Positions 3,065 through 57,576 are shown, numbered from the stretch's first letter. The stretch: DNA of 64,000 bases from Candidatus Woesearchaeota archaeon (GCA_016192995.1 JACPTB010000006.1:5687-69686), one strand, 5' to 3'. Notes: a model not told the origin generated them from the letters alone. Program-made: numbers and translations.

Positions 3065-3073
3065 AACAAAAAA

Positions 3074-3232: not shown

Positions 3233-3240
3233 CTGAAGAA

Positions 3241-6597: not shown

Positions 6598-6626
6598 GAA
6601 ACTATTCTTAAATCTTTCTTAATCAT

Positions 6627-6868
6627 GTACGTAATAAGTCTGGGGTTTTAGCGCCTACTTTTGTGAAGCTCCTCGATATCTTTATTAGGGATTTTTCGGG
6701 GTTCCTTGCCGATAGGCAAGTCTTATAATCCCAGACGCAAGCCAACTTATGAATCCTTGATTTATATTATTGAGGGAGTCGGGATTATATTTATAGAGAG
6801 AAAAATCCAATTGATGTACGCTTCCAAAGCTGAACCGGCGCTAAAACCATAGAGGACTTATTACGTAC
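6627..6868 (+). mobile_element. Palindromic MITE-like element, copy B (GTACGTAATAAGTCT termini) carrying a nested 89-nt insertion
   Basis: Termini, second stem GGTTTTAGCGCC/GGCGCTAAAACC and apical stem GGATTTTTC/GAAAAATCC match copies D, F and G. The conserved loop is split between ..GGTTCC and AGAGAG... It abuts the stop codon of the gene at 6869. Confidence 0.8.
6706..6794 (+). other. Structured 89-nt insert inside the apical loop of copy B
   Basis: Absent from D, F and G at the homologous position. It contains hairpin TTGCC-GATA-GGCAA and the imperfect stem ATAATCCCAGAC / GTCGGGATTAT. Confidence 0.65.
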
Positions 6869-7912: not shown

Positions 7913-7982
7913 CTTTTGTAATTAACTTTTCACAACTAAACAATGGGAACTATCTGTTTATTTATAAAGGTTCTCAACAAGT

Positions 7983-8146
7983 GGCGATATTGAAAAGCTT
8001 ATGTTGCCATCAATATCGCGAAGCTTATCACCTAAAAATATTGAGTACTTTTCGGAGTGCCAGAGAGAAAAGTACTATCTATAAACTACGCCAAAGCTGA
8101 GCCGATGGCAACCTTTGCTTTGCAAAGAGAGCTTTTCAATATCGCC
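7983..8146 (+). mobile_element. Palindromic MITE-like element, copy C (GGCGATATTGAAAAGCT termini)
   Basis: Outer stem is GGCGATATTGAAAAGCT / AGCTTTTCAATATCGCC. Second stem is GTTGCCATC / GATGGCAAC. Apical hairpin is GTACTTTTC-GGAGTGCCAGAGA-GAAAAGTAC. A perfect 8-bp direct repeat CAACAAGT flanks it at 7975-7982 and 8147-8154. Confidence 0.85.
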
Positions 8147-9797
8147 CAACAAGTTGAAGAACTCTATCAGCAACTTTTCCATCAATCTTATATACTTGTT
8201 TTTTAAGGAATTCTTGGGTATTTTTCTTAAGTTCTTGCTGGATATCTTTGCCATATAAAATGGCAAAGATATTCCGAGTAAGATTCTGTTTTTTTTCAGT
8301 AACCACTACAGCATTGCTGGCAATGTATCCTTGATCACGAATGTTTGAAGAAAAACAAATTAATACTACGGGTACACCAAACATAATTGCTTCTAAAACA
8401 ATAGTAGAGCTTTCTGCAATAAGGGCGTCAGTGATCGCAAAGAGTTCGTAGATAGGGGTATCTTTAATAAAAATAACATCATCTAAATTTTGTTGATGAG
8501 CAAGCTTTCGATACCATGCTTCATGAGGATCTCGCGGATGTAATTTTACTACCAACCTAAGTTGCTTTTTATCTTGATTTTGTGTTTGCGCTACAGCAGC
8601 AACACTTTTAAAGAGTTCCGTTGCAAGATCATAAGTTTTCCATGGTTCTTTATCAATGCTTGTTGCATAAACAACAACTTTTTCTTCAGGATTGATGCCT
8701 AAACGCTGTTTAAGTTCCTGACTTTTATTTTTCTTTTGCATGCTGTTTTTTATAATAACAAGGTTATCACTTGCTAATTGTCCAACGATATGAATCTTCT
8801 CTTGAGGAAAAGAGCCTTGTTTTACAAGAAACTGTTTGGTATGTTCACCATAAACTGCAATAAGATCAGCAAGTGGATAATGATCAGCAATATCTTTTTG
8901 GGTATGAACATAATCCAGATCGTATCCTATCAGTCCTTCTTGAATTTCAAGGACAGGAATACCTAACCTTTTTGCAGCAACAATCACAGACTTTCCTGGT
9001 GTTGTATTCCCTGACATGGTGACAACAATTTTTGGTTTTGTTGCTTTGAGCATTTCTTTGCTTAACAGAATATACGTGATTGCTTCAGGTAAAATTTTAG
9101 AAAACATAAGTTGAAATTTCTTATATAACGAGGTGTACAAATCAAGCTCTTTTCCCTTAAATCTTGTTTGGAGCGCTTTCTTAAACTCAGGGCTTGTTAA
9201 GATTTTTTTTCCAAGAGCGGCATATTTCTTTTTCTCTTGAGAAACTTTTCTCATTATTTCTATTGAATAAAATTTTTCAATAGGATTAGTATCAGAATAC
9301 ATTGAAGTTTGCAGTTTTGTTTTTCCTCCCCATGAAGCTAAATCGTCGTAATAAAAAACAAAGAGTTTTTTATGCTGCTGACGAATTTTTTCAATAAGCG
9401 GTCCGATTCTTATGTTATTGGCTGCTACACAGTATGAGGGATGTGTTGTAACAACAATAGTATCCTCTTGATTATTAAGGTCAAGAGAATGTTGAGGAAT
9501 AATATATTTTCTTACAACAAACCGGGCTTGTTCAAGATGGTTAAGCAGAAAAGTATAGAGTAGTGAGAAAATATTCTTTTCTGGCAAAGGTTCTCCTTTG
9601 AAAATACCTTTCAATGAAGGATAATGGTAAAAAGAAGCATCTGCTAACCATCGTTCAGCAAACCACCATAGTGATGTTTGTTCATATGTTAATAATTGTT
9701 TTATATTTTTACCGTCAAGGATAGTTTTATCTGCAAACTCTTTTAAAAAAATCATTTCAGGATAATCTTGATTAATAGTGGTGTTATTTTTTTCCAT
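8136..9797 (-). CDS. GT-B-fold protein of uncertain function (TagF / epimerase_2 / PseG-like C-terminal half)
   Basis: 553 aa. The C-terminal pattern is KLHPRDP ... ESSTIVLEAIMFGVPVV. It lies next to nonulosonate genes. Its last 3 codons plus the stop are encoded by element C. Confidence 0.4.
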   Translation of the reverse strand: MEKNNTTINQDYPEMIFLKEFADKTILDGKNIKQLLTYEQTSLWWFAERWLADASFYHYPSLKGIFKGEPLPEKNIFSLLYTFLLNHLEQARFVVRKYIIPQHSLDLNNQEDTIVVTTHPSYCVAANNIRIGPLIEKIRQQHKKLFVFYYDDLASWGGKTKLQTSMYSDTNPIEKFYSIEIMRKVSQEKKKYAALGKKILTSPEFKKALQTRFKGKELDLYTSLYKKFQLMFSKILPEAITYILLSKEMLKATKPKIVVTMSGNTTPGKSVIVAAKRLGIPVLEIQEGLIGYDLDYVHTQKDIADHYPLADLIAVYGEHTKQFLVKQGSFPQEKIHIVGQLASDNLVIIKNSMQKKNKSQELKQRLGINPEEKVVVYATSIDKEPWKTYDLATELFKSVAAVAQTQNQDKKQLRLVVKLHPRDPHEAWYRKLAHQQNLDDVIFIKDTPIYELFAITDALIAESSTIVLEAIMFGVPVVLICFSSNIRDQGYIASNAVVVTEKKQNLTRNIFAILYGKDIQQELKKNTQEFLKKQVYKIDGKVADRVLQLVGRY

Positions 9798-11286
9798 AGT
9801 GAAAACCTAATGAGTTGAACAGCGATGTAATTTCATGAAGAGTGATAATTTTACTGGCAAACAATAAGAGCAGGTATAACAATAGTGAAATAAATGAAGA
9901 GACAAGAATGCTCATATAAATATTAGCGCTGAAAATGTTTCTCAAGAGCGCTAATGAGGCATAAAATATTCCTGAAATAAAAATAAGTTTAATCCAGTTC
10001 CAAAAAGGATTCTGGAACTGAAGTGTTTTTCTCAAAAAATAATACGCTAAAATAAACATGCAAAGATAGCTTATTGATGTAGCGAGCGCGGCTCCTCCTG
10101 TTGAAAATTGAGGAATAAGAAGAGCATTAAGGATAAGATTAATGAAACCAGAACTGATAATAACAACAGCATCGTATTTTGGTTTTCCTATAGCAACCAG
10201 CGTTGTGGTGTACATAAGCGCTAAGGAGAGAGCAATATTTCCAAAGAGCAGAATTCTCAAAGGCATGGTTGCTGGAAGATATTCTTGTTTAAACAGAACA
10301 GTTATAATGACAGGAGCAAATTCAAAAATAAGAAGTGAAAGCGGCAAAAGAAGAAGCGGTACATATTTATTAAATAAATATATTCCACTAAGGAGTTTTT
10401 CTTTTTCGTTTTTTGTCCATAATTCAGAAATAGTTGGGAAGAAAACATATCGTAGTGACATGCCAATATAACCAATCAGTGCTGCGGTCGGAAACGCAAC
10501 ATTATAAACAGCAGCTTCTTTAACTCCTTGCAAATAGGTCAAAAATATAGTATCAATATAATTAGCAAAAATTCCTCCAAAAATAGTCATCGTAGCGGGA
10601 AGTGAAAAGTAGATCAGTTCTTTGACAAAAGGTTTTGTAAGGCTATACTTAACTTGGAATAAATCAGGGAATACTAATTTCCAAAAAATGTAGGCATAGA
10701 TAATTAAGACTACCAAAAAAGAAAAAATGTACCCGAGTACCGGCGAAAAAATATTATTGAAAAATATAAAGAAAATAAAGGTAGTCACCCATAACAAAAT
10801 TATTTTTGTTAATTCAATGCTTGAAAAGAACCCAATCTTTTGAAAGCCAAGAAATGTTTGCCTGAGCAATAACACTCCTGATGAAAAAACAAAAGAAATG
10901 CTTAATCCAATAATCACCAGTTTTGCAGTTTCATCTTTAAAATAAGAAGTGCTAAGAAAAGGTGCAAGTAAGAAGAAAACAATAACGCTGATCAGCGCAA
11001 CAATGAGAATAATGCTTCCTACAAATATAATGCTTGCCTTGACCAGGTCTTTTCGTTTTTCAACAAGATATTGAGGGATATATTTTACCATGGTCCGCGA
11101 AAAACCTAGATCAACAAATCCCATAAAAAACCCTAAAAACGCAAAAACACTGTAAAACAGCCCAAATTCAGTTATAGATAGATTTCTGCTGAGGTAAATC
11201 CGATAGCCATAGGTAAGAAACGCAACAACAATAGAGGTAATAAAAGTAATAGAAAATCCCTTGATAATATGCTTTAAATAACCCAT
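9784..11286 (-). CDS. Wzx-like polysaccharide flippase (MOP superfamily)
   Basis: 500 aa with about 14 hydrophobic segments. It sits within the glycan cluster and overlaps the downstream gene by 14 nt. Confidence 0.75.
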   Translation of the reverse strand: MGYLKHIIKGFSITFITSIVVAFLTYGYRIYLSRNLSITEFGLFYSVFAFLGFFMGFVDLGFSRTMVKYIPQYLVEKRKDLVKASIIFVGSIILIVALISVIVFFLLAPFLSTSYFKDETAKLVIIGLSISFVFSSGVLLLRQTFLGFQKIGFFSSIELTKIILLWVTTFIFFIFFNNIFSPVLGYIFSFLVVLIIYAYIFWKLVFPDLFQVKYSLTKPFVKELIYFSLPATMTIFGGIFANYIDTIFLTYLQGVKEAAVYNVAFPTAALIGYIGMSLRYVFFPTISELWTKNEKEKLLSGIYLFNKYVPLLLLPLSLLIFEFAPVIITVLFKQEYLPATMPLRILLFGNIALSLALMYTTTLVAIGKPKYDAVVIISSGFINLILNALLIPQFSTGGAALATSISYLCMFILAYYFLRKTLQFQNPFWNWIKLIFISGIFYASLALLRNIFSANIYMSILVSSFISLLLYLLLLFASKIITLHEITSLFNSLGFHYGKK

Positions 11287-11330
11287 GACCTATAAAAGTG
11301 GCTTCTTATTTATAAAATTATAACTGAAGA

Positions 11331-11483
11331 GTACGTAATAAGTCTGGGGTTTTAGTGCCTATTTCGTGAAGCTCTTCTTAGTCAACATCGGGGATTTTTC
11401 GGAGTGCCAGAAAGAAAAATCCAATGTTAAATAACCTTTTGAAGCTGAACTGGCACTAAAACCATAGAAGACTTATTACGTAC
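11331..11483 (+). mobile_element. Palindromic MITE-like element, copy D (GTACGTAATAAGTCT termini)
   Basis: Same architecture as F and G. Its second stem carries a compensatory change, GTTTTAGTGCC / GGCACTAAAAC. The loop is GGAGTGCCAGAAA. Flanking 8-bp repeats are ACTGAAGA (11323-11330) and ACTGAAAA (11484-11491). An extra right-end fragment AAGACTTATTAC lies at 11491-11502. Confidence 0.8.
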
Positions 11484-11498
11484 ACTGAAAAAGACTTA

Positions 11499-12449
11499 TT
11501 ACCTATCATAAGCTGTTTTAGATGTTCTGGATTTAGGATGAGTATCTATTGTTTTTTCTTCACCGCAGCTATACAGCGTTTCACTGTATTGTTTCATAAA
11601 ACTATGAAAACCATAAAAATATTGATAAAAAAAGCTAATCAACACAAGTATAGGAAACGTTAACGCATAAAATAAAAGCAATGGTTTAAAGCTTCCAAAC
11701 AAAGCAGATATTAAAATAAAAAAATTAATAGTATTAAAATAAAACAGTGTTGAGATAGTCTTAAAAATAATACTTCCGCATTTTTTTATAAATGGTTGAT
11801 GATCACTATATACATTTGTTTTTGTTTTCTTAGTAGAGGAAGGAGTTTTATACAAAAATCCAAAACTTAATCCTGCTTTATACAATTGTTCAAAGCTTGG
11901 TTTTTTAGGTAAGTGATATTTTTCATATAATGCTGGGATTGTTTTCACCTTGATAAGTTCTTGAACAAGGCAGCTGTATTTTAACATTAAAAATGAATTA
12001 TACACCAGGATAGATGAAAAAATAATAATTCCCGCTAAAAAAAGCAGAGGTGAATTAGGTGAATCATATCTGACAAAAGCATTATATCCTAATCCGAGAA
12101 AAACAGTCACTCTAATGATGTTTGTTCCCATGCCATCAAGATACCCTCCCCGCTGGGAAGATAAATTTCTAAAACGTGCAATTTCTCCATCAACACAGTC
12201 AATAGTAAACCATAACTGCAGGAGAATTGCTCCAATAATATTCAGCGTGTAATCAGGAAATGCAAGAAATACGCTTGCAAGAATGCCAGTAAAAATCTCA
12301 GCAAAAGTGACTTGGTTAGGTGTTACTGATGTGTGGACTAACACCCACGTAATATAGCGAGAAATCCTTCGGTAATAATAATACATAAAAAACGACTGTT
12401 TTTCTTTAGGGAGCTGAGTTCGTTCAACAACTTCTCGCAAGCTTATCAT
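11499..12449 (-). CDS. CDP-alcohol phosphatidyltransferase family membrane protein
   Basis: Motif DCVDGEIAR...GGYLDGMGTN (D-G-x2-A-R..G..D) plus multiple TM segments. The start is chosen at MISLREV. In-frame upstream ATGs at 12497 and 12569 are possible, but they run into the divergent promoter and neighbouring gene. Confidence 0.7.
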   Translation of the reverse strand: MISLREVVERTQLPKEKQSFFMYYYYRRISRYITWVLVHTSVTPNQVTFAEIFTGILASVFLAFPDYTLNIIGAILLQLWFTIDCVDGEIARFRNLSSQRGGYLDGMGTNIIRVTVFLGLGYNAFVRYDSPNSPLLFLAGIIIFSSILVYNSFLMLKYSCLVQELIKVKTIPALYEKYHLPKKPSFEQLYKAGLSFGFLYKTPSSTKKTKTNVYSDHQPFIKKCGSIIFKTISTLFYFNTINFFILISALFGSFKPLLLFYALTFPILVLISFFYQYFYGFHSFMKQYSETLYSCGEEKTIDTHPKSRTSKTAYDR

Positions 12450-12532
12450 TTTAATGGAAATTAAAGGTGAGTTTAAATATTTTCTTAAACTAAACATATA
12501 TAAATCAATCAAATATTCGATAAGCGTATAAC

Positions 12533-13231
12533 ATGGTACATATAGTAGGAACAATTGGTCCAGCTTCATGGAATGAAAACGTATTAAACATCCTTAATGA
12601 AAAACTAGGCTTGGTGCGATTTAATGGTTCATGGTTGGATTATGATACGTTTAAAGTAGTGAGGCAGAAAATTAAGAAACCTATTCTTTTAGACATCCCA
12701 GGTGACAGAAAAAAACCACGCCAAAAAACATTAACTGATGATATGTTAATTAACCTTGCTATTCAAGAAAAACTTAATTACATTGGCTTGTCATATGTGC
12801 GAAGTGCAGAAGAAGTTCATGCTATGAGAAAAAGGCTTGAAGGGAGTAATGTAAAAATAGTTGCAAAAATTGAAACGCAGGAAGCATTGCAATATTTGCC
12901 GGAAATTGTAGCTGCAGCTGATATGTTATTAGTTGATCGCGGTGATTTAGGCACTGCAATAGGTTTTGAAAAAGTGCCTATTGCTCAAGTAAATATCTTA
13001 AAAGAATGCAATAAGCAAAACAAGCCAGTGATTACAGCAACTGAAATGATGATGTCAACATTAGCTTCCCATAAGCCGAATTGCGCTGATGTCTCAGATG
13101 TATTTTTTGCGGTGTATCATGGTACAAATTATGTTATGTTGTCTGAAGAAACTGCAATCGGTCAGAATCCTATTCAAACCGTTGAAGTAATGCAGAAAAT
13201 TATTGATGAAGCAGTAAAACATAAAAAATAA
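12533..13231 (+). CDS. Minimal pyruvate-kinase-like TIM-barrel protein (A domain only, no B or C domain)
   Basis: 232 aa. Motifs seen: IVGTIGPAS, VRFNGSW, LLDIPGDR, AKIETQEA, VDRGDLG, PVITATEMMMS and MLSEETA. These line up with PK active-site segments. Confidence 0.7.
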   Translation: MVHIVGTIGPASWNENVLNILNEKLGLVRFNGSWLDYDTFKVVRQKIKKPILLDIPGDRKKPRQKTLTDDMLINLAIQEKLNYIGLSYVRSAEEVHAMRKRLEGSNVKIVAKIETQEALQYLPEIVAAADMLLVDRGDLGTAIGFEKVPIAQVNILKECNKQNKPVITATEMMMSTLASHKPNCADVSDVFFAVYHGTNYVMLSEETAIGQNPIQTVEVMQKIIDEAVKHKK

Positions 13232-13236
13232 ATTTT

Positions 13237-14967: not shown

Positions 14968-15063
14968 ATCTAAGAGAATTATTAGTTGTTTTAAAAAGAT
15001 TGCCTTTGTTAGAAAAAACATATATATCTAACTAAGTTTTGCACTAGTAACGAGCTGTTATTT

Positions 15064-16836
15064 ATGAGTGAAGATATAAAACAAGATGCATCTGCTATAA
15101 CATGGAATAAAAAGTATTCTTTCTTGCTTCTTTTGTTGATACCAATTATCTTGAGCATGTATCTTAGGGTCATGCCTGCTTATTTACCATTTATTGATGA
15201 AAAAGCTGAAGACGATGTTCTGTTAGGGTTGAAAAACCAAATCTCGAAAGCAGTGGATAAACAATACTCTTCTCTGCCTCAAGAAAATAAAGACGTATTG
15301 ATCAAAAAACAATATGATGAATATCTTAAACAACACCAGAGTGAAATTGATCAAGTTATTTATCAACAATCAAAGAAATACAAAGATAATTTTCAGGATG
15401 ATACTGGGCATACCTATCTATTAGAGGTAGATCCTTGGCATTGGTATAGGCTTGCAAGAAATTATATTGATCATGGTTATGATCGTAATGTAGCATATGA
15501 AGGAAAATATTATGATACCTATATATCCGCAGGTTTGCCATTAGTGCTCTTGTTTGGAATAACAGTGAGTACTATCTATAAATTATTTGTTCCAGGACTG
15601 ATTTCTTTTTCAAAAGAGAAGTTCTTTCTTTCTGAAATAGTTACCAAGGTTTTAGTCGTTATTATTTTTTTGGTATTATTGTTGATATTATTAATCCACC
15701 CATTTAAACAAACGTCTGTAACTATCCACTCTGAGACAAAAGCTATTTTGGTAAACGATCAATGGTACAACATTCTTGTCAACATCAAAGATAAGTCTGC
15801 TCCTGATGCAATTATTACTTCGTGGTGGGATTTTGGGCATTTTTTTAAAGCAATTGGTGATCGAGCTACAACGTTAGATGGGGGAAATCAGAATTCTCCA
15901 CAAGCGCATTGGATAGGAAAACTATTATTAACTGATAATGAAAAAGAAAGTGTTGGTATTTTACGAATGCTTGCGTGTGGTGCGACAGTAGCATTTGATG
16001 AGTTAGAGCAACTATTTAACCATGATCAAGTCAAAACTAAAAAAGTTGTTGATCATATTATTTTATTATCAAAGAATGAGGCGAAGAAGTACCTCCTTCA
16101 ACAAGATTTATCTGAACAACAAGCTGAACATATTCTGCAATACACCCATTGCCAGCCGCCAGAAAATTATCTTATCGTCAGTTCCGATATGATTCCTAAA
16201 TCATCATCTTGGGCGCATTTTGGCAGCTGGAACTTCTCACGCGCTCAAGTAATCTATTTAACGAATAAGAACATGAAAGAAGAAGCTGTCACCTTTATGC
16301 GAGAGGATATGGCACTTACGAAAGAACAAGCTGAAGAAACTTATACACAAATAAAATCGTATAGCTCTGGTGATAAAGCTACTGCATGGATCGCTCCATG
16401 GTACAGTTATAGGCCGCTCCTTAATCTTTGTAAAAAAATAGATAATAATTTTGTTTGTCTGGATGCTTTGATGGTAAATCTCACTGAACATCAAGTGTAT
16501 AAACCAAAAATAAATGGCGATAAAGTATATTCTATAATTAGTTCATTTATAGATGAAGATGGTAACTACACTGTGGAGAATTTAGAATACTCAAATAAAA
16601 CATTTTTTACAACAAAAGAAGATGAGATGCTTGGTGTTTCAATATACCTGGATCGAAATAGGAACTACTACAATTTTTATATGGATCCAATACTGGTAAA
16701 TAGCATGTTTAATAAGATGATGCTTTTTAGTGATCATATTCATTTTAAGTGTTTTGATTTATTTGATAATACGGGATCTATCTCAGAGCAAAATAAAATA
16801 CAAGTATGGAAAGTAGACTGGAATTGCACATCTTAA
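15064..16836 (+). CDS. aglB: AglB/STT3 paralogue 2 lacking the membrane core (TM1 + EL1 start fused to the last TM + C-terminal WWDFG domain)
   Basis: 590 aa. Residues 1-160 and ~161-590 align closely with the N-terminal ~200 aa and C-terminal ~400 aa of the 54456-57521 paralogue. The junction is ..YISAGLPL|VLLFGI.. near 15543/15544. GxxDxDxY and TIXE-like motifs are absent; TSWWDFGHFF is retained. Confidence 0.8.
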   Translation: MSEDIKQDASAITWNKKYSFLLLLLIPIILSMYLRVMPAYLPFIDEKAEDDVLLGLKNQISKAVDKQYSSLPQENKDVLIKKQYDEYLKQHQSEIDQVIYQQSKKYKDNFQDDTGHTYLLEVDPWHWYRLARNYIDHGYDRNVAYEGKYYDTYISAGLPLVLLFGITVSTIYKLFVPGLISFSKEKFFLSEIVTKVLVVIIFLVLLLILLIHPFKQTSVTIHSETKAILVNDQWYNILVNIKDKSAPDAIITSWWDFGHFFKAIGDRATTLDGGNQNSPQAHWIGKLLLTDNEKESVGILRMLACGATVAFDELEQLFNHDQVKTKKVVDHIILLSKNEAKKYLLQQDLSEQQAEHILQYTHCQPPENYLIVSSDMIPKSSSWAHFGSWNFSRAQVIYLTNKNMKEEAVTFMREDMALTKEQAEETYTQIKSYSSGDKATAWIAPWYSYRPLLNLCKKIDNNFVCLDALMVNLTEHQVYKPKINGDKVYSIISSFIDEDGNYTVENLEYSNKTFFTTKEDEMLGVSIYLDRNRNYYNFYMDPILVNSMFNKMMLFSDHIHFKCFDLFDNTGSISEQNKIQVWKVDWNCTS

Positions 16837-18843: not shown

Positions 18844-18851
18844 AGTGCAAA

Positions 18852-19895: not shown

Positions 19896-19941
19896 ATTCC
19901 AGCAAAAGTACCAAGACCCTTTTAAATTTTTCCTCTAAGTT

Positions 19942-20103
19942 GGCTCTGTAGAAAATGTAGTTTTTGGCATCTTTTGGTGAGGCTCTTCACGTTTATATGT
20001 GGGGATTTTTCGGAGTGCCAGAGAGAAAAATCCAATAAAATATACTCTTTAACAGCCGAACTGATGCCAAAACCGAGGCTATGCCGAGATTTTCTACAGA
20101 GCC
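19942..20103 (+). mobile_element. Palindromic MITE-like element, copy E (GGCTCTGTAGAAAAT termini)
   Basis: Outer stem is GGCTCTGTAGAAAAT / ATTTTCTACAGAGCC. Second stem is GTTTTTGGCATC / GATGCCAAAAC. Apical hairpin GGATTTTTC-GGAGTGCCAGAGA-GAAAAATCC lies at 20003-20033. The right-arm bulge is CGAGGCTATGCCGAG. It sits in a divergent promoter gap. No TSD was seen. Confidence 0.8.
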
Positions 20104-20159
20104 CTACCAAAAAGTATTTTAATAAGTAAAACAAGATGCTATGATAATGAGGTAGTAAC

Positions 20160-20471
20160 ATGGTAGATGAATCACTTAATAACCTTCAATCAAAACAACA
20201 GCTTCAAGATAATAAATCAGGCAATAATAAAAGATGGCTATTCCAAGCATTGCCGCTATTCATAGGTATAATTATAATAGTTTCCTTACTCACCATTGAC
20301 TTTACAGGTTCAGTTTCTCAAGGTGATATTACGGGAATGTCAGTTGCAACAGGTATGACACCCAAACCAATGCCTAAACAATGCAGATCAGATGTTGATT
20401 GCAATCCTGATGAAATTTGTTATGATTCAGGAGCTATTAAAGTCTGTATGAAACTAACTTTTATAAAATAG
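20160..20471 (+). CDS. Small N-terminally anchored Cys-rich protein
   Basis: 103 aa with one TM segment. It then has ITGMSV..CRSDVDCNPDEICYDSGAIKVC, a motif shared with the N-terminus of the 23091 protein. Confidence 0.5.
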   Translation: MVDESLNNLQSKQQLQDNKSGNNKRWLFQALPLFIGIIIIVSLLTIDFTGSVSQGDITGMSVATGMTPKPMPKQCRSDVDCNPDEICYDSGAIKVCMKLTFIK

Positions 20472-20489
20472 TTCATTCTTTAATAATCA

Positions 20490-21698
20490 ATGCAAGGTAA
20501 AAAACTCACCAACGTACTATTCTTCACCAATGGATTAGTTGGCTTAGGAGGTCAGGAGCGTGTTTTATTAGAAGCAGCTTCCTATTTTCAAAAAGAAAAA
20601 AAAATAACAACAAATGTTGCAACCTTTGTTTTGGACAAAGATATTCTTGAAAACTATCAGCATCTTGCAGTTACTGAGATCAGCAACTGCTCATATATTC
20701 AAAGAATAAAGTTATTGAGAAATTATTTGAAGCAAACAAAACCAGCTTTAATTATTGCATCATCATCACTCGATTGTATGTATGTATTCTTAGCATCATA
20801 TGGTTTAAACATTCCTTACATCAGCTACATTCATGGTTCTTTATTCTGGCTTGAAAACGAAGAACTCAAATATACTCTTCTTCATAAAAATTGTTTTCAT
20901 CGTATTAGAAATTCAGTCCAAGGTCATAAAGAATTTGTTCCAGAAAAAATCAAGAATACTTTCACGAAAAAAATCTTCAATAACCTAGTTGCAGTTCTCG
21001 ATTATATTGCTGTTAAAAGAGCGCGGGCAATAGTCGTATTAACAAAACAGATTGCATGGGAAATTGAAGAATTATATAACAAATATTCGATAGTGGTGAG
21101 AGGTTGTCTTGACAAAAAATTATTTAACTATCAGCCAAAGGTTGATATCAGGAAAAAATACCATATTAATAAAAAAACAAAAATTATTATGAATATTGGC
21201 AGATTAGATCCAAGAAAAAGAATTGATGTTTTAATCAAGGCATTTGACCATGTTGCAGAAAAATACAACGATAAAAACAATGATGTTGTTCTCTTAATAG
21301 GCGGCAAAGGTCCAGATAAAGAACGGTTAGATAACATCCATAAAACATTGAAGCATAAAGAAAAAATCAAATTTCTTGGTTTTATTCCAGACAACGAATA
21401 TTATGATCATCTTGCAGGCTGTGATATTTTTGCATTTCCAAGCTGGACAACGTCCGGAATTCCGCCGTATGAGGCATTAGCGTTAGGAAAGAAAGTTGTT
21501 TGGACAACTGAAGCAGAAGAGCCAGTCTTGACAGATCCCTTAGTGTTTCTTGCAGATCCAAATGTTGAAGCATTCACTCAGGCAATGAACAAAGCATTAA
21601 CAATGAAGGTGAAGGAAAAACCTCCAACATATCTTAAAGATCATATATGGGGGAAGTATTTTGAAACGTTATATGAAATTGCCATAAAAAATGTTTAA
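20490..21698 (+). CDS. GT4-family glycosyltransferase
   Basis: 402 aa. Motifs seen: GRLDPRKRIDVLIKAF and FPSWTTSGIPPYEALALGKKVV (an E-x7-E-like region). Confidence 0.8.
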   Translation: MQGKKLTNVLFFTNGLVGLGGQERVLLEAASYFQKEKKITTNVATFVLDKDILENYQHLAVTEISNCSYIQRIKLLRNYLKQTKPALIIASSSLDCMYVFLASYGLNIPYISYIHGSLFWLENEELKYTLLHKNCFHRIRNSVQGHKEFVPEKIKNTFTKKIFNNLVAVLDYIAVKRARAIVVLTKQIAWEIEELYNKYSIVVRGCLDKKLFNYQPKVDIRKKYHINKKTKIIMNIGRLDPRKRIDVLIKAFDHVAEKYNDKNNDVVLLIGGKGPDKERLDNIHKTLKHKEKIKFLGFIPDNEYYDHLAGCDIFAFPSWTTSGIPPYEALALGKKVVWTTEAEEPVLTDPLVFLADPNVEAFTQAMNKALTMKVKEKPPTYLKDHIWGKYFETLYEIAIKNV

Positions 21699-21707
21699 GC
21701 TTTTTTA

Positions 21708-21861
21708 GTACGTAATAAGTCTGGGGTTTTAGCGCCTACTTTTGTGAAGCTCTTCTTAAATTCACTTTGGGGATTTTTCGGAGTTCCAGAGAGAAAAATC
21801 CAATTGATATATGCTTGAAAAGCTGAACCGGCGCTAAAACCATAGAAGACTTATTACGTAC
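21708..21861 (+). mobile_element. Palindromic MITE-like element, copy F (GTACGTAATAAGTCT termini)
   Basis: Complete architecture with loop GGAGTTCCAGAGA. A perfect 8-bp direct repeat CTTTTTTA flanks it at 21700-21707 and 21862-21869. Its right terminus supplies the stop codon (21854-21856) of the convergent GT4 gene. Confidence 0.85.
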
Positions 21862-23005
21862 CTTTTTTAAGAACTTTATTATACACACCAATATATTTTT
21901 CTATGATCTTTTTCCAGTCATATTCTTTCTCAACATTTTGCTGAATAGCTTTTCCTAAATTAAGGCGTAATGATCTAATTCTTAAACGAAGAATTCTATT
22001 CGCAATTTGTTCAGGTTCATCTTTAACAACAAAACCATTTTTGCCATTTTCAACAATATCATTGACTATGCCGACGGGCGTGCAAACTAATGCTAATCCA
22101 GATGCACCAGCCTCAAGAATAGTTTGTCCAAAATTTTCAGATAATGAAGTATAAACAAATATATCAGCTTTTTTGTATTCATCAATTAATTCTTTGCCAT
22201 ATTTAAGTCCAGCAAACGTAATGTTCTCACCTACATCAAGCTCCTTAACGAGTTCTTTCATTTCATCAAGATAGCCAGGTTTATCAGTTGCGCTGTTAAC
22301 AATTTCTTCTCCAACAATCCGAAGAACAATAGCTTCTTTCTTCAATAAAGACATAGCTCTAATCAATGGTGCAATATTTCTATTTCTTGATATTCTCCCA
22401 ACAAACAGCAGGGTCAATATTTTATTTTTTCTTTTAGTTCTATCAACATAATATTGTTGTGCATCAATTCCCATAGGAATAACCTGTATTTTATCTTCAG
22501 CAACGCCATACTTTAGTGCTTCTTTTTTTTCGAAATGCGATGAAACAATAACAGCATCTGCTTTTTTTGCTACCATTTTCATAGTCAGGACATCATATAA
22601 TCTATACGGCAGTTTAACCCAACTATTTTTCAAATATTTGTCATACCCTAACAACCCACCATGGGTATTCAGCACAAAGGGTTTTCTCAATAATTTTGCC
22701 ATAACAAAGCTGAGATCTGTTTGAAAACTTCTATAATTATGAGCATGAATAATATCAGTGTTCTTAAACACAGATATCATGCTCGGTGTTATAATATATT
22801 GTAAAAATCTAAACCATGGTTTGCATCGTTCAACAGAAACCCCTTTATAATGTTCACATTCAGGAGCATCTTTCGCTTTAAAGGTGGTTGTTGTAATAGG
22901 AGAATGTATTCCTTGTTGTTCAAGTCTAAGAGAAATTTGATAAGCTTGATTAACAGGACCTGTTACATTTGGATAAAATGTTTCAATAACCCTTATAACC
23001 TTCAT
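21854..23005 (-). CDS. GT4-family glycosyltransferase
   Basis: 383 aa. Motifs seen: GRISRNRNI and TSLSENFGQTILEAGASGLALV. Confidence 0.8.
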   Translation of the reverse strand: MKVIRVIETFYPNVTGPVNQAYQISLRLEQQGIHSPITTTTFKAKDAPECEHYKGVSVERCKPWFRFLQYIITPSMISVFKNTDIIHAHNYRSFQTDLSFVMAKLLRKPFVLNTHGGLLGYDKYLKNSWVKLPYRLYDVLTMKMVAKKADAVIVSSHFEKKEALKYGVAEDKIQVIPMGIDAQQYYVDRTKRKNKILTLLFVGRISRNRNIAPLIRAMSLLKKEAIVLRIVGEEIVNSATDKPGYLDEMKELVKELDVGENITFAGLKYGKELIDEYKKADIFVYTSLSENFGQTILEAGASGLALVCTPVGIVNDIVENGKNGFVVKDEPEQIANRILRLRIRSLRLNLGKAIQQNVEKEYDWKKIIEKYIGVYNKVLKKGT

Positions 23006-23054
23006 GGTTATAAGGGTTAATCGAAATCTTTATAAATATGTTTTTTCAAAGTAT

Positions 23055-23070
23055 GGTTTATATATAAACC
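23055..23070. promoter_or_regulatory. Palindromic TATA element GGTTTATATATAAACC
   Basis: Perfect 16-nt palindrome centred about 29 nt upstream of the ATG at 23091. A second box, TTTATAAATA, at 23029-23038 fits the divergent gene. Confidence 0.45.
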
Positions 23071-23090
23071 ATAATTAGAGGTGTATTTCA

Positions 23091-25019: not shown

Positions 25020-25035
25020 TTTTTTTCTTTTTTTC
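25020..25035 (+). terminator. Oligo-T tract (archaeal-type terminator candidate)
   Basis: TTTTTTTCTTTTTTTC lies immediately after the stop at 25017-25019. The TATA-like box TTTTATAAAT follows at 25041-25050. Confidence 0.5.
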
Positions 25036-25071
25036 TTAAATTTTATAAATAAGTAATCTCTAGGATAAGCT

Positions 25072-26091
25072 ATGGCATCAAAGCAACCATTAGTTTCAAT
25101 AGTAATTCCTTCTTACAACGCTCATAAAAAAATAGCAAGTGTTTTAGATGCTATTATCGCAAATAACTATCCACATTTAGAAGTGATAGTCATAGATGAT
25201 AATTCTGCTGACCATACCTTAGAAATCGTTGAAACCTACCAGCATAAACTCTCTATTAAAATTATCAAAAAACCAAAATCAATGAAAAAAGGAGCTGCAA
25301 TAAGCACAAATCTAGGGATCAAAAAAGCAAAAGGTGAGATTGTTTGTTCTATTGATAGTGATGCTGTTATTTCTAATAATTGGATTAAAGAAGTAGTTAA
25401 GCAATTCAGAACAAACAGGAAATTAGGCGCAGTTGCAGGTTATATTTATACCGGCAACAAAGAAAATCTCTGGGCTAATTTCATGGGCGCTGAATTAGAA
25501 GATCGTTATGATAACATAACCAGCGATTATGTAGAACATATTAGTACGTGTAACACTGCTTATCGGAAAAAAGCATTAGAAGAAGTTGGTTTATTTGATG
25601 AAAAATTCTATTATGGTTATGATGTTGATCTTAGCTACAAACTAAGAAAAAAAGGCTATCAGTTAAAACTGCTTAAAACAATCTCTTGTGAACATTATTG
25701 GAAAGAAACATTAGGGGGATATTTAAAACAACAATATGATGTAGCATATGCGCGTTTACAGCTTCTTAATAAATATCCGCAAAAAAAAACAGGCGACGAT
25801 GTAGCAAATTGGTTTATGTTCATGCAAGTGCCTTTAACAGGATTATTTTATGCATTTTTAGGCTTAGGGCTGCTTTTCTATCTAACATTTGGAGCAACTA
25901 CTTCAAGCATACTTATGAAAATCAGCCTTATTCCTCTTGCATTTCTCATGTTATTAGAAATACCTCAAACATTAAGAATCCTTATTAAGCGTGAAGACGT
26001 ATCATTTATACTATTTCCTCTATTTATTCTTCTTAGAAACACTGCGTGGTGTTACGCAGCAGCAAGGTATGTGATGAAGCTAGTATTTTAG
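25072..26091 (+). CDS. GT2-family glycosyltransferase with C-terminal TM segments
   Basis: 339 aa. Motifs seen: SIVIPSYNA, VIVIDDNSAD and DSDAV. Confidence 0.8.
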   Translation: MASKQPLVSIVIPSYNAHKKIASVLDAIIANNYPHLEVIVIDDNSADHTLEIVETYQHKLSIKIIKKPKSMKKGAAISTNLGIKKAKGEIVCSIDSDAVISNNWIKEVVKQFRTNRKLGAVAGYIYTGNKENLWANFMGAELEDRYDNITSDYVEHISTCNTAYRKKALEEVGLFDEKFYYGYDVDLSYKLRKKGYQLKLLKTISCEHYWKETLGGYLKQQYDVAYARLQLLNKYPQKKTGDDVANWFMFMQVPLTGLFYAFLGLGLLFYLTFGATTSSILMKISLIPLAFLMLLEIPQTLRILIKREDVSFILFPLFILLRNTAWCYAAARYVMKLVF

Positions 26092-26244
26092 GTACGTAAT
26101 AAGTCTGGGGTTTTAGCGCCTACTTTTGTGAAGCTTTTCTATCTTTACGTTGAGGATTTTTCGGAGTTCCAGAGAGAAAAATCCAATATTTAAATCACTT
26201 TGGAGCTGAACCGGCGCTAAAACCATAGAAGACTTATTACGTAC
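26092..26244 (+). mobile_element. Palindromic MITE-like element, copy G (GTACGTAATAAGTCT termini)
   Basis: Starts at the nucleotide after the TAG stop of the GT2 gene. The architecture is complete, with loop GGAGTTCCAGAGA. There is no clean TSD. Confidence 0.8.
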
Positions 26245-26432
26245 TAATTTGTGGACAATACTTTATTCATGATACCTCCCTTATATCATCGAAGAATATG
26301 ACCTTATCCATGTAATTATTTAATATTATTAATGGCTATAAAGTTGATTTTATCAATTTTAAACGCTTATAACCTAAATCTAAATATTTAAATAACTATG
26401 CTGTTTTATGCCTTAAAACAAAGGTGATCAAT

Positions 26433-27866
26433 ATGGTTAAAAAGGTTATATTTGCCGTTGCTCCTAATATTGAGGGGAGGCGTCCTGAACGCTCATTTGG
26501 CTGTTCATTTACTAACTATCCTATGCCAAATCTGGGGTTATTAACGGTAGCTGCTCTTCTGGATAAAGAAGGACATAATGTTGAAATTATTGACGATCCT
26601 AATTATACCTGGAGTGAATTCTATGAAAAGCTCTTTGAGCAAAAAGCAGATTATTATATTTTTCACACGCCTATTTTAGCAACAAATATTGATTTAGGAA
26701 TTGCCAAAAAATTATTAGAGCAGATTCCTTCAGCAGGTATCATTTTTTTTGGTCCGCACCCAACTTATACGCCAGAAAAATTCCTTTTTGATGAGCGTGT
26801 TGTTATTGCGCGAGGCGAAGCAGATTATATTATTCGCGATCTTGTTGCAGGTAGACCAATCGAAGAAGTCAAAGGAATAAGTTATCTTAAGGAAGGCAAA
26901 CTGCTTGAAAACGAAACAGCAGGTATCATCAAAGACATAGATCAGCTGCCAATTCCTGCTCGGTGGTTGGATAAGCATGGATATGCAAACCCTAAAATGA
27001 GTGGTAAAAAATATACTAATATTTTAACAACGCGTGGTTGCGCATATCAATGCTATTATTGTGTTCCTAATTCAGTAAGCTGGGCAAGGGAATTAGAATG
27101 GAAGCGGTTTAACAAAGGCAAGCCTCCAGTAACAAAACGCTCTCCTGAAGCAGTGCTTGAAGAAGTAAAGCAATTAGTTGCTCAAGGATATCAAGAATTT
27201 TCATTTATTGATGATCAGTTTGTCTGGGAAAAAGAAAGAACATTGAAAATGCTCAATGGCTTAAAACAACTTAACATCAAATATGGTGTTCTTGCAAGAG
27301 CTGATCGCTTATGTGATGAAGATATTGTAAAAGCAATGGCTGAAAGTGGTTGTCAATATATTGACATAGGTGTTGAAAGTTTTGATCAAGAAGTGCTTAA
27401 TTATATTAAAAAAGGGATGCGCGTAGAATCTATCTACAAAGCAATAGAGTTATTGAATAAATATAACATTACGCCCAAAGTCAATATTATGTTTGGAACT
27501 TCCCCTAATGAAACTAAGGAATCAATCATAGCAACGATAAAAAAGACCAAAGCATTGCCGATTGATTACTGTATGTTTTCGATTGCAACGCCTTTTCCAG
27601 GAACGGAATTTGAAAAGCATTGTGAAGAAAAAGGTTGGCTTACAGAAAATGCAAAAGACGAGCGCATTTACGAAAATCTTAATCCAGCAAAGCGTTCATT
27701 GATCAAGCATCAATATTTAACACCGGAAGATTTAGAAAGGTTAACAAAACAAGCAAACCGCGAATTTTATTTAAGGCCAAGTGTTATTGTCAAGCAGATC
27801 AGAAAAACTAAAACAATTAAAGGCTTCAAAGAAGGAGCAAAAACCTTACTTAAACTAATCAAATAA
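26433..27866 (+). CDS. B12-binding-domain radical SAM enzyme (class B-like)
   Basis: It has an N-terminal Rossmann-like B12-binding region and then TTRGCAYQCYYC (CxxxCxxC). The start is taken at an ATG preceded by AAGGTGA. The track begins at a GTG at 26424. Confidence 0.8.
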   Translation: MVKKVIFAVAPNIEGRRPERSFGCSFTNYPMPNLGLLTVAALLDKEGHNVEIIDDPNYTWSEFYEKLFEQKADYYIFHTPILATNIDLGIAKKLLEQIPSAGIIFFGPHPTYTPEKFLFDERVVIARGEADYIIRDLVAGRPIEEVKGISYLKEGKLLENETAGIIKDIDQLPIPARWLDKHGYANPKMSGKKYTNILTTRGCAYQCYYCVPNSVSWARELEWKRFNKGKPPVTKRSPEAVLEEVKQLVAQGYQEFSFIDDQFVWEKERTLKMLNGLKQLNIKYGVLARADRLCDEDIVKAMAESGCQYIDIGVESFDQEVLNYIKKGMRVESIYKAIELLNKYNITPKVNIMFGTSPNETKESIIATIKKTKALPIDYCMFSIATPFPGTEFEKHCEEKGWLTENAKDERIYENLNPAKRSLIKHQYLTPEDLERLTKQANREFYLRPSVIVKQIRKTKTIKGFKEGAKTLLKLIK

Positions 27867-27922
27867 ACATAGAGATTGTATATAATCAGTAGTATTACTC
27901 GTAGCTTATGGGATAACTTGAA

Positions 27923-28020
27923 GGAGAGAAAAAATAATATTGGCGCAAACGGCATGTATCATGCCGAGCTTTTACCGCAGTAAAAGCGGTTTGCCTGCCA
28001 ATAATATTATTTTTTTCTCC
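27923..28020. repeat. 98-nt Y-shaped palindromic element (short relative of the MITE-like superfamily?)
   Basis: Outer arms are GGAGAGAAAAAATAATATTGGC / GCCAATAATATTATTTTTTTCTCC. The inner stem is GCAAAC / GTTTGC. It encloses two hairpins, GGCATG-TAT-CATGCC and GCTTTTAC-CGCA-GTAAAAGC. Confidence 0.6.
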
Positions 28021-28069
28021 AACATATATTGCGCATGATATATCCAATATAACAATATAAAACGGTGGA

Positions 28070-29161
28070 ATGATGTCAGTTACTTTAGGCAAGAAAAACA
28101 TTGCTGTTGAAACAGTAAGAAGGCTGCTGTATCTAGTTCCAGAACTTCCTTCCTATGTTCAAATTGAAATTACGAATGACTGTAATCTGTCATGCAAAAT
28201 GTGCCCGAGGGAAGTGCTGAATGTTAAATTTGTCAGCATGCCGCTCGAAAAATATAAATTATATATTGATAAAATTGCAGCAGTTGGTGTTGAACAGATT
28301 TCTTTAACAGGCTGGGGCGAACCATTAGTGCATCCACATTTGATTGAATGTTTAAGTTATGCAAAATCAAAAGGATTAATCACTAAATTTACGACGAATG
28401 GAGTTCTTATCAGGAAGGATGTTGTCGAGCCGATTATTGCTACGGGTGTTGATGAAATTACTTTTTCTATAGATTCTATTAATATGGATCCAAAAAATGA
28501 CTGGGCGCATTTGAATAAAGTGGCTTTAAAAAGAATTGAGGATTTCATCAGGTTGCGAAAAGAGAAAAATCAGCAGAATCCTAAAATTATTCTGCAAACC
28601 ATGCTCCAGAAAAATCATAGTGAAGATATATTTGACGTAATCAAATGGGCAGGAAAAACTGGCTGTGATGCAGTTAATCTTGGCAGATTAAACCTTAGTT
28701 TTGATCCAAACCTTGATCGGCCTAATCTGGAAGAAGAAAAGTTTATATTGGATAAAGCAGAATCACTAGGAACAGAATATAACATTCAGGTTGATTGTGT
28801 GCAAGGAGGGATGTTTTCAGGTATTGCGCGATTTGCTTACAAAAAATTAAAAAAATATTTGCATCGCGGTGGAAAAACATGCCTTAAAACTTATGATTAT
28901 TGTTATATTAATGTTCATGGAAAAGTGACTCCTTGTTGCTTGCTCCCGAACACTGAAATGGGAGATTTAAATACAGGAGAGTTACATGATATATGGAATA
29001 ATGATGCATTTAAATCATTCAGAGAACATGAAACAGCTTTTTGTGGAAGCTGTGATGTGATGAGAGTTGATATGCTTGAACAAAAGAAAGAGCAGCAAAA
29101 TGCCCAAAAAGCAGTTGAAGAAGGAAAATTGTACGGTATCCGTCGTAGTTCCCACGTATAA
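28070..29161 (+). CDS. Radical SAM enzyme with a C-terminal SPASM/twitch-like Cys cluster
   Basis: 363 aa. Motifs seen: EITNDCNLSCKMCP near the N-terminus and TPCCLLP...FCGSCD near the C-terminus. Confidence 0.75.
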   Translation: MMSVTLGKKNIAVETVRRLLYLVPELPSYVQIEITNDCNLSCKMCPREVLNVKFVSMPLEKYKLYIDKIAAVGVEQISLTGWGEPLVHPHLIECLSYAKSKGLITKFTTNGVLIRKDVVEPIIATGVDEITFSIDSINMDPKNDWAHLNKVALKRIEDFIRLRKEKNQQNPKIILQTMLQKNHSEDIFDVIKWAGKTGCDAVNLGRLNLSFDPNLDRPNLEEEKFILDKAESLGTEYNIQVDCVQGGMFSGIARFAYKKLKKYLHRGGKTCLKTYDYCYINVHGKVTPCCLLPNTEMGDLNTGELHDIWNNDAFKSFREHETAFCGSCDVMRVDMLEQKKEQQNAQKAVEEGKLYGIRRSSHV

Positions 29162-29846
29162 TGAACGTAAAAATATAGTTCTTTTAGTTGACGAGTTATC
29201 TCAAATTTACAATAAGCATTTGTATGCTTATTGTAAATTTGAGATAATTATTGTTGATGATAATTCCCCTGATGGTACTGGTAAAGTCATTGATGATTTA
29301 GCAAAAAAATATCAGGGTAAAAAATACCGTGTTATTGCTCTTCATCGTCAAGGAAAGCTAGGATTAGGAACTGCAGTTGTTGCAGGTTTTAAACAAGCAA
29401 AAGGCTCAATAGTTGGTGTTATGGACGCAGATCTAAGCCATCCTCCTGAAATTATTCCCAATATGATTGAACCCATTCTAAAAGGCAAAGCAGAACTTAC
29501 GGTGGGAAGTAGGTACGTTCAAGGCGGCGGTGTAGAAGTCTGGCCTTGGCATAGAAAATTAATGAGCAGAATTGCAACATTGTTGGCAAGTCCTTTAACT
29601 AAAATCCATGATCCGATGTCTGGATTGTTTTTCATTAAAAAAGATCTTCTTAAAGGAATAGACTTAGGAACTGAAGGTTATAAGATAGGTTTAGAAATAT
29701 TTGTAAAAACAAATTATAAAACTTTTGAAGAAGTGCCCTATCTCTTCAGGAATCGAGAATTTGGTCAAAGTAAGTTAAATACTAAAGAAAATATGCGTTA
29801 TCTTCAGGAATTAGGCAGATTATATTGGTATAAACGGCTCCGGTGA
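29100..29846 (+). CDS. Dolichyl-phosphate hexose synthase-like GT2 (DPM1/AglD-like)
   Basis: Motifs seen: VSVVVPTYNERKNI, IIIVDDNSPDGTG and MDADLSHPP. The first plausible ATG overlaps the previous gene by 62 nt. The last three codons plus the stop lie in element H. Confidence 0.8.
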   Translation: MPKKQLKKENCTVSVVVPTYNERKNIVLLVDELSQIYNKHLYAYCKFEIIIVDDNSPDGTGKVIDDLAKKYQGKKYRVIALHRQGKLGLGTAVVAGFKQAKGSIVGVMDADLSHPPEIIPNMIEPILKGKAELTVGSRYVQGGGVEVWPWHRKLMSRIATLLASPLTKIHDPMSGLFFIKKDLLKGIDLGTEGYKIGLEIFVKTNYKTFEEVPYLFRNREFGQSKLNTKENMRYLQELGRLYWYKRLR

Positions 29847-29997
29847 AAATGTAGTTTTTGGCATCTCTTTGTGAGGTTCTTTAATTTCATAAGTGAGGAT
29901 TTTTCAGAGTGCCAGAGAGAAAAATCCAATAAAATAAATCCATCAAAAGCCGAACTGATGCCAAAACCGAGGCTATGCCGAGATTTTCACCAGAGCC
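29836..29997 (+). mobile_element. Palindromic MITE-like element, copy H (GGCTCCGGTGAAAAT termini)
   Basis: Same subfamily as E, with compensatory outer-stem changes. The loop is AGAGTGCCAGAGA. A direct repeat TATAAAC flanks it at 29829-29835 and 29998-30004. Confidence 0.85.
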
Positions 29998-30041
29998 TAT
30001 AAACTAAAAAGTATATAAATAAGTGATAATGAGACATATCT

Positions 30042-32889: not shown

Positions 32890-32947
32890 TTTATAAATCT
32901 TGTTTCGGTATGGGCTTCACAGCCCATACTAGAACAAGATTTATAAA
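32890..32947. promoter_or_regulatory. 58-nt near-perfect palindrome whose two ends are TTTATAAA boxes of a divergent gene pair
   Basis: Sequence is TTTATAAATCTTGTTTCGGTATGGGCT-TCAC-AGCCCATACTAGAACAAGATTTATAAA, with 2 mismatches. The boxes lie 24-31 nt from the ATG at 32866 (minus strand) and 42-49 nt from the ATG at 32989. Confidence 0.55.
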
Positions 32948-57521: not shown

Positions 57522-57576
57522 AATGATAACACCTTCTTTCAGCAATTGGCATATAGTTTCCTTTATAAAAGTTGCC

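Follow-up and report, generated by a model that had tools for sequence, protein, structure and literature searches.

Short non-coding repeats that lie between the genes of a compact archaeal genome, and here and there overlap their ends, raise the question of whether they are mobile, and whether their arrival altered the proteins encoded alongside. We have examined this for a 64,000-nucleotide stretch of DNA from a Candidatus Woesearchaeota archaeon (GCA_016192995.1 JACPTB010000006.1:5687-69686; ‘the window’ in what follows), which holds nine copies of one hairpin-shaped element. This element is a mobile one: 8 bp of the target are duplicated when it inserts, and corresponding sites in relatives are unoccupied. 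[quoted passage not shown]

The window has seven occurrences of a conserved core (TTTTCGGAGTGCCAGAGAGAAAA) against an expectation of none, all of them on the + strand; with copies B and J added the total comes to nine, and a covariance model of the family finds no further copy. The copies, together with a related palindrome, are:

Copy A, 3074-3232, + strand: termini AGAACTTTGCAAAAT / ATTTTGCAAAGTTCT; match to the core motif; covariance-model score 131 bits; no recognisable duplication
Copy B, 6627-6868, + strand: GTACGTAATAAGTCT subfamily; covariance-model score 87.5 bits; no recognisable duplication
Copy C, 7975-8154 including repeats (element 7983-8146), + strand: termini GGCGATATTGAAAAG; perfect 8-bp duplication CAACAAGT at 7975-7982 / 8147-8154
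Copy D, 11323-11491 including repeats (element 11331-11483), + strand: GTACGTAAT subfamily; 7/8 duplication ACTGAAGA / ACTGAAAA at 11323-11330 / 11484-11491
Copy E, 19942-20103, + strand: termini GGCTCTGTAGAAAAT; in a divergent promoter region; covariance-model score 145 bits; no recognisable duplication
Copy F, 21700-21869 including repeats (element 21708-21861), + strand: GTACGTAAT subfamily; perfect 8-bp duplication CTTTTTTA at 21700-21707 / 21862-21869
Copy G, 26092-26244, + strand: GTACGTAAT subfamily; directly 3' of the stop codon of a GT2 glycosyltransferase gene (25072-26091); flanks match at 5/8 only
Copy H, 29829-30004 including repeats (element 29836-29997), + strand: termini GGCTCCGGTGAAAAT; 7-bp repeat TATAAAC at 29829-29835 / 29998-30004
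Copy J, 59570-59748 including repeats (element 59578-59740), + strand: termini GGCTCTGTCCCGAAT; perfect 8-bp duplication GTTTTTGC at 59570-59577 / 59741-59748; covariance-model score 89 bits
Palindrome I, 34058-34108, no strand: perfect, 51 nt, 24-bp arms TAGGCTCTGCTCCGAATGTATTGC / GCAATACATTCGGAGCAGAGCCTA; between a GHMP-kinase gene and a SIS-domain gene

An earlier, sequence-only reading of the window had named five pairs of flanking direct repeats, and each reads in the sequence as claimed: 8/8 for copies C, F and J, 7/8 for D, and 7 bp for H (7/8 if counted as an 8-bp duplication). In every case the flanking repeat directly adjoins the outermost base pair of the terminal inverted repeat; its sequence varies from copy to copy, and it is therefore not part of the inverted repeat. 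The perfect repeats are far above chance, with 8-mers set one element apart in this window matching at a rate of 1.1e-4 (8/8) or 1.5e-3 (at least 7/8), and the probability of three or more perfect repeats among nine copies being ~1e-10. That the repeats are a coincidence of AT-rich DNA, and the copies an immobile dispersed repeat of REP-like or terminator type, would sit comfortably with the 34% G+C content of the window and with the four of its nine copies (A, B, E and G) that have no recognisable duplication; set against the chance calculation for the window alone, the same 8-bp rule in other genomes and two orthologous empty sites (both described below), we give this explanation practically no credence. 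The arms of palindrome I are two GGCTCTG-type element termini set back to back, and the similarity of these termini suggests that it may be what is left of a family member after an internal deletion.

Empty sites and the tails of three glycosylation genes

Removal of the element and one repeat copy from the window sequence gives a reconstruction of each ancestral site. We applied this to three genes whose stop codons now lie inside a copy:

GT-B-fold glycosyltransferase-like gene, 8136-9797, - strand: last residues GRY* from copy C; reconstructed ancestor ENLYK*
GT4 glycosyltransferase gene, 21854-23005, - strand: last residues GT* from copy F; reconstructed ancestor A*, 382 aa
Dolichol-phosphate mannosyltransferase-like (DPM1-like) GT2 gene, 29100-29846, + strand: last residues RLR* from copy H; reconstructed ancestor LKSI*

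The predicted empty junctions at these sites are TGGTATAAACTAAAAAGTATATAA, AATGTTTAAGCTTTTTTAAGAACTTT and GGTTCTCAACAAGTTGAAGAAC. The three ancestral C-termini proposed in the sequence-only reading are reproduced exactly, with WYKRLR* reverting to WYKLKSI*, LQLVGRY* to LQLVENLYK*, and VLKKGT* to VLKKA*, the stop codon of the last then overlapping that of its convergent neighbour as TTAA. A new stop is met after a few codons in the AT-rich terminus of the element, which confines the swap to the last 1-5 residues (ENLYK to GRY at copy C, A to GT at copy F, and LKSI to RLR at copy H); replacement of a protein tail in this way is an ordinary consequence of MITE insertion.

Orthologues provide a view of which tail came first. 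At site H, the closest orthologue of the DPM1-like protein (P0002; NCBI GCA_053531935.1, locus L001) is 86% identical and, at 249 aa, has the length of the reconstructed ancestor; it ends ...LYWYKLKMT, sharing YKLK with the reconstructed WYKLKSI, and farther homologues likewise end YKL.... The corresponding DNA of locus L001 is free of the element: the site reads TGGTATAAATTAAAAATG, and the unoccupied stretch TGGTATAAATTAAAAATGACC compares with the predicted empty site TGGTATAAACTAAAAAGTATA; locus L002 is also unoccupied here. At site F, where copy F keeps apart the convergent GT4 genes at 20490-21698 (+) and 21854-23005 (-), locus L029 carries the same convergent pair, again element-free: its genes (843-1991, + and 1988-3190, -) overlap by 4 nt, in the zero-spacer, overlapping-stop arrangement that the reconstruction calls for, and its site-F DNA reads AAAGTTCTGAACGTACGTTAAACAGTTTT against the reconstructed AAAGTTCTTAAAAAAGCTTAAACATTTTT. 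The orthologue encoded there (P0126) is 77% identical, ends KVLNVR and has the predicted ancestral length of 382 aa. At site C, the sole homologue of the GT-B-like gene is 34% identical, and its alignment ends before the tail. No element-free relative with a present-day tail was found, and the comparison of orthologues supports the rewriting of tails for two of the three genes, those at H and F.

The same comparison bears on age. The earlier reading had spoken of recent transposition into an already zero-spacer genome; the empty site of locus L029, with its overlapping stops, bears out the zero-spacer part for site F, and ‘recent’ can be upheld only by reference to the divergence from these relatives (77-86% identical), after which the insertions at H and F took place. 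The closest window copies of the element are 87-90% identical to each other. Polymorphic empty sites within the same strain, which had also been suggested as a place to look, are absent from the assembled contigs; six Logan contigs (SRR12113419-28) match the window at 100% identity and break off within elements. Since these short-read contigs of the same strain, from several runs, agree fully with the window up to the element in which each breaks off, the insertions appear to be fixed in the sampled population.

The DPM1-like coding region contains a further feature, a perfect palindrome with 24-bp arms (TTATCTCAAATTTACAATAAGCAT / ATGCTTATTGTAAATTTGAGATAA) at 29196-29247. The same region of the L001 orthologue has equal length and only an imperfect quasi-palindrome; between the two the left arm is the more altered (15/24 identical, against 19/24 for the right), as though template switching had copied the right arm over it.

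Identity, spread and setting of the element

In what they share, the copies have the attributes of a MITE. They are short (153-242 bp) and hold no genuine gene, some neighbouring open reading frames (ORFs) extending a few codons into the element; the terminal stem, P1 (15-17 bp), provides every copy with terminal inverted repeats; of the 29 copies examined for a duplication of fixed length and varying sequence, 12 are 8/8 and a further 9 are 7/8 or 7-bp; and they occupy many unrelated loci—nine within 64 kb here and 22 elsewhere—with empty orthologous sites in L001/L002 and L029. The loci elsewhere were obtained by searching for the exact core in a single genome for each prokaryotic species, and are distributed over 13 assemblies titled Woesearchaeota, Nanoarchaeota or Nanoarchaeia, save for two ‘Methanosarcinales’ bins.

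The duplications seen in these other genomes extend the rule found in the window. Among 20 further copies seven are 8/8, six of them at the automatically assigned ends (L010, L015, L017, L020, L021 and L023) and L016 after end correction; L018 and L025 become 8/8 after shifting the ends by 1-2 nt, and six more have 7/8 duplications (L005, L006, L007, L011, L014 and L024). The duplicated target sequences are AT-rich and unrelated to one another. Almost all copies in other genomes being flanked by 8-bp duplications in their turn, we therefore regard the element as a mobile, non-coding, non-autonomous transposon.

Two further points on distribution can be made. The bins titled ‘uncultured Methanosarcinales archaeon’ hold four element loci (L005, L009 and L021 in CAYVTQ01; L024 in CAYNCK01), which could be a matter of mis-binning, mislabelling or horizontal transfer; and at L056 (560-830, -) two copies of different subfamilies stand head to tail, ~30 nt apart.

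The core scan gives no match in viral contigs, and two terminal patterns give 64 chance matches there, none with an element. Rfam (Rfam 15) returns nothing at gathering score over the whole window, and nothing overlapping the element at E<=5 over 2900-11700. An origin from tRNA or tmRNA was also considered and set aside, as ARAGORN finds neither in the window. Full-text literature searches met no description of this element family, which appears to be undescribed and structurally unusual; a bulk survey does list one Woesearchaea genome with 105 MITEs per Mb, among the highest archaeal MITE densities (PMC11602168).

Slot positions measured on 34 copies (window and loci L005-L026) fall into two clusters, the ends of the element lying either 43-48 nt upstream of a start codon, and this on either flank, or 0-30 nt from a stop codon. 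Copies are thus confined to the narrow slots that a compact genome tolerates, just outside the core promoter or at, or overlapping, a stop codon—a pattern that fits survival only where coding sequence and core promoter are spared. In several cases a copy runs over a stop codon, with overlaps of 1, 4, 8, 11, 11 and 29 nt, which shows the rewriting of tails to be a general side effect of the family. The 43-48-nt cluster also effectively marks out the minimal promoter footprint of these genomes. With respect to neighbouring genes there is no preferred orientation, the four possible configurations being represented by 8, 7, 6 and 5 copies. The TATA boxes found ~25 nt upstream of many copies were considered as a promoter of the element’s own; such boxes occur on both sides, and belong to the promoters of the flanking genes.

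The window itself is a large archaeal N-glycosylation island in which three genes of STT3/AglB type are accompanied by many transferases of the GT2 and GT4 families, by flippases and by nucleotide-sugar enzymes. Its proteins find their best homologues under the names Woesearchaeota or Nanoarchaeota, which makes the organism a DPANN archaeon. The three STT3/AglB-type oligosaccharyltransferase genes lie at 41-3064, 15064-16836 and 54456-57578, one of them being short (590 aa). Copy A is placed between the first of these (+) and a convergent gene at 3241-6597 (-), an ORF of 1118 aa in which an NAD-dependent epimerase/dehydratase, a DegT-type aminotransferase and NeuB with a SAF domain are fused; three steps of a nonulosonic-acid-type pathway are thereby brought together in one polypeptide. 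Long hairpin palindromes, unrelated in sequence to the element, are found in the divergent promoter regions at 51360-51422 (29-nt arms, 97%) and 32890-32947 (27-nt arms, 89%). Adjoining copy J is a UPF0175 / DUF3368-PIN toxin-antitoxin-like pair (58760-59550, -); in two relatives, at L027 (4092-4780) and L028 (5538-6314), the same pair directly follows the GT4 orthologue, in the place that copy F and a convergent GT4 gene take in the window, and given these different locations the module appears to have moved.

A conserved fold

A structure alignment of 27 copies (A2) has the element folding end to end as a hairpin of four helices. Working inwards from the termini, P1 is the terminal stem, of 14-16 bp in this alignment, and P2 a helix of 10 bp; in P3 a covarying G-C and Y-R pair is followed by tandem G·A/A·G and a further 4 bp; a hypervariable internal loop of ~20 nt per side follows; and P4 is a 9-bp stem beneath the loop GGAGTKCCAGAGA, invariant in the 26 copies that bear this apical module. 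Copy J has a different module (GGGAATTCCAATGGGAAT) and a P3 that is fully Watson-Crick, and other diverged copies (L012:4199-4397, L022:5575-5739, L026:4172-4337 and L056) likewise retain P1-P3 beneath other apical modules. On the 3' arm, most subfamilies carry a mini-hairpin of the form CGA-stem-loop-stem-GAG, often with GAAA loops. Insertions of length are located in loops: the otherwise invariant apical loop of copy B holds 89 nt (6706-6794) that are self-folding (-26.3 kcal/mol), with no duplication at the insertion edges, and a second insertion lies in the mini-hairpin loop of L025.

The pairing is well supported by covariation: across the alignment standard pairs make up 96.6% of cells, and in 29 of 39 pairs both partners change, values reached in 0/500 column shuffles, and sliding the partners by 1-3 columns leaves 27-47% paired. 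That the + strand is the folding strand is shown by the conservation of the tandem G·A motifs and by the asymmetry of the loops; it could fold either as RNA or as single-stranded DNA.

This fold is the ground for an alternative in which the element would be first of all a gene for a structured small RNA of ~160 nt, perhaps protein-bound via its G·A motifs and mobile by chance, so that the fold reflects RNA function. The dense two-sided changes, the strand-specific non-Watson-Crick features conserved beside a covarying Y-R pair, the mini-hairpin with its frequent GAAA loops, the invariant apical loop and the confinement of insertions to loops all speak for it. On the other hand, G·T mismatches are not in excess over A·C (14 vs 11) and one-sided changes are rare, and the usual signature of RNA is therefore absent; many exchanges are transversions between Watson-Crick pairs, and most mismatches may simply be the decay of dead copies, the count of G·T against A·C being uninformative as to an RNA strand. 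Nor does the element have a conserved internal promoter, a preferred orientation relative to its neighbours, a match in Rfam (even at the permissive threshold used above), or, on inspection, the 3-nt bulge of a canonical k-turn. Taken together, we consider an RNA gene unlikely, if still the most serious competitor to the transposon reading, under which the four-helix fold with its tandem G·A motifs and invariant apical loop would be needed for propagation or for some added function.

Particular structural candidates were also looked for. A canonical, L7Ae-binding k-turn was rejected, the tandem pairs of both G·A motifs being directly flanked in A2 by Watson-Crick pairs on both sides, and no bulge-helix-bulge motif is apparent on inspection. 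Copies of the same subfamily (e.g. F vs G, A2 columns 48-66 / 98-118) have identical stems and differ at about half of the positions in the two 20-nt internal-loop strands; divergence within a subfamily is concentrated in these strands and not spread evenly along the element. A guide-like role for the hypervariable loops is rejected, since the longest loop match to a copy’s own flanks averages 6.5 nt, as compared with 6.65 nt to the flanks of other copies.

Termini, mobilising enzyme and comparison with known systems

For a MITE of this kind, a DDE-type transposase encoded elsewhere would make 8-bp staggered cuts in the target and mobilise the element in trans. For the GG-type termini, this enzyme would most likely be IS6/IS26-like or ISL3-like. 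The IS6/IS26 insertion-sequence (IS) family has the terminal-inverted-repeat consensus GGTTCTGTTGCAAA, with GG and G7 conserved, and generates an 8-bp duplication (PMC6807381); the GG-type termini agree with this consensus in 8-11 of 14 positions, where the mean under the null is 3.65 (P(>=10) = 9e-4). Inverted repeats of ISL3 elements begin GGCTCT and give 8-bp repeats (PMC6305408, PMC5398504), a start that is present in copies E, H, J and palindrome I and absent from the GGCG- and GTA-type termini. Since Nanobdellota genomes together carry all 27 annotated IS families (PMC13343696), partner transposases are plausible.

Several observations weigh against this reading, or against parts of it. 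No transposase, and thus no autonomous partner, is encoded in the 64-kb window, as judged by Pfam and NCBIfam searches of all ORFs of at least ~100 aa; nor does an autonomous IS with the family’s termini occur in the window or in L001-L029 when inverted-repeat pairs with an 8-bp duplication are sought at 400-3500-bp spacing, the sole match of that scan, in L009, having termini unrelated to the family. The GTA-type termini of the GTACGTAAT subfamily (B, D, F, G, L014 and L017) score 3-5/14 against the IS6 consensus, which is chance level, and yet are associated with 8-bp duplications, implying either that several transposases act on one scaffold or that recognition is not by terminal sequence. 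The invariant columns of the alignment all lie in P2/P3 and the apical hairpin and none in P1, the termini being the least conserved part; an interior better conserved than its ends is the reverse of what simple end-binding by a transposase would lead one to expect. All nine window copies lie on the + strand although the neighbouring genes are on both (two-sided p ~0.004), where a transposase with two equivalent ends should insert either way. Finally, for the putative insertion into the GT-B gene at site C the evidence is the perfect 8/8 duplication, and orthologues lend its reconstruction no support. A metagenome scan with the terminus GGCTCTGYYCCGAATG gives at least 120 single chance matches, the covariance model finding an element, among the matches listed, in L056 only. 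The GTAA-type ends with their 8-bp duplications may recall IS66.

Some of these observations would be accommodated were the element recognised as a single-stranded DNA hairpin of one strand, exposed at replication forks and bound by a structure-specific enzyme via its scaffold, not its terminal sequence. Swappable termini would then be expected, as would strict Watson-Crick pairing and co-orientation; the window has four unrelated P1 sequences (GTACGTAATAAGTCT, GGCTCTGTAGAAAAT, GGCGATATTGAAAAG and AGAACTTTGCAAAAT) on one scaffold with one duplication length, the pairing is almost purely Watson-Crick with few wobbles, and the cumulative GC skew rises through the entire window, in which the copies all point the same way. 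Sheared tandem G·A pairs are stabilised by a Y-GA-R context, in DNA no less than in RNA, and both G·A motifs have this context. Beyond the window the agreement fails: of four loci with two copies, the copies are in opposite orientation in L012 and L026 and in the same orientation in L022 and L056, and a tie between orientation and local GC skew had to be discarded, the 22 other loci splitting 11 positive / 11 negative. Moreover, the IS200/IS605 elements make no target duplication and insert beside a fixed short motif, whereas the present family has an 8-bp duplication and no target consensus, and no candidate enzyme is seen. We regard a hairpin of this kind as highly doubtful. A more general form, in which one structure- and strand-specific machinery would recognise the conserved scaffold in place of terminal sequence and so move copies with unrelated termini, by way of single-stranded DNA or RNA, always duplicating 8 bp and inserting in a direction linked to replication, strikes us as slightly less improbable, though improbable all the same; if true, it would amount to a logic of transposition not described for any IS family.

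MITE insertion with target duplication is in itself textbook biology. What the MITE reading offers here is a clean, orthologue-verified case of mobile elements surviving in a genome with almost no intergenic DNA, where they are squeezed in between a stop codon and the promoter that follows, and at times rewrite protein tails. A covariance model of a DPANN-specific MITE family could aid annotation, help to account for assembly breaks caused by repeats and be of use in the strain typing of Woesearchaeota metagenome-assembled genomes; and the family, with an interior conserved above its ends, interchangeable termini and apical modules, and a uniform orientation in the window, is a candidate for studying how MITEs are recognised in archaea.

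Among known systems, the IS6/IS26 elements and their MITEs offer the closest points of contact with the GG-type copies: an 8-bp duplication, termini that start GG with a G at position 7 and TTGNAAA at 8-14, and, for copy E, a match to the consensus at 11/14. ISfinder places MITEBth2 and MITEHarch3 in this family (PMC6807381). The present element differs in being a full-length four-helix hairpin with a conserved interior, as opposed to two short terminal inverted repeats only, in having a GTACGTAAT subfamily that is off the consensus, and in the absence of an IS6-type transposase from the window. With ISL3 it shares the 8-bp direct repeat and, in copies E, H and J and palindrome I, a GGCTCT start, as in ISArsp7 and a Fervidobacterium ISL3, a likeness that extends over the first 6-7 bases compared; against this, both the commonest terminus across genomes (GGCGGCATTGAAAAG) and the GTA type lack that start, and here too no transposase was found.

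The Correia elements of Neisseria and the enterobacterial ERIC/IRU repeats are hairpin-forming MITEs, of which Correia duplicates TA. Like the present family they are small, non-coding, intergenic or at gene ends, fold end to end, and can alter the expression or termini of their neighbours; they differ in host domain, sequence and duplication, and the archaeal family stands apart through its dense compensatory change and its interchangeable apical modules and termini. The PATEs derived from IS200/IS605, together with REP elements, resemble it in their dependence on hairpins and in a possible bias of strand or orientation; these, however, have no target duplication and a fixed target motif, and the 8-bp duplications of varied sequence at AT-rich sites described here lead us to reject a derivative of an IS200/IS605-type single-strand transposon, or a REP, as the identity of the element.

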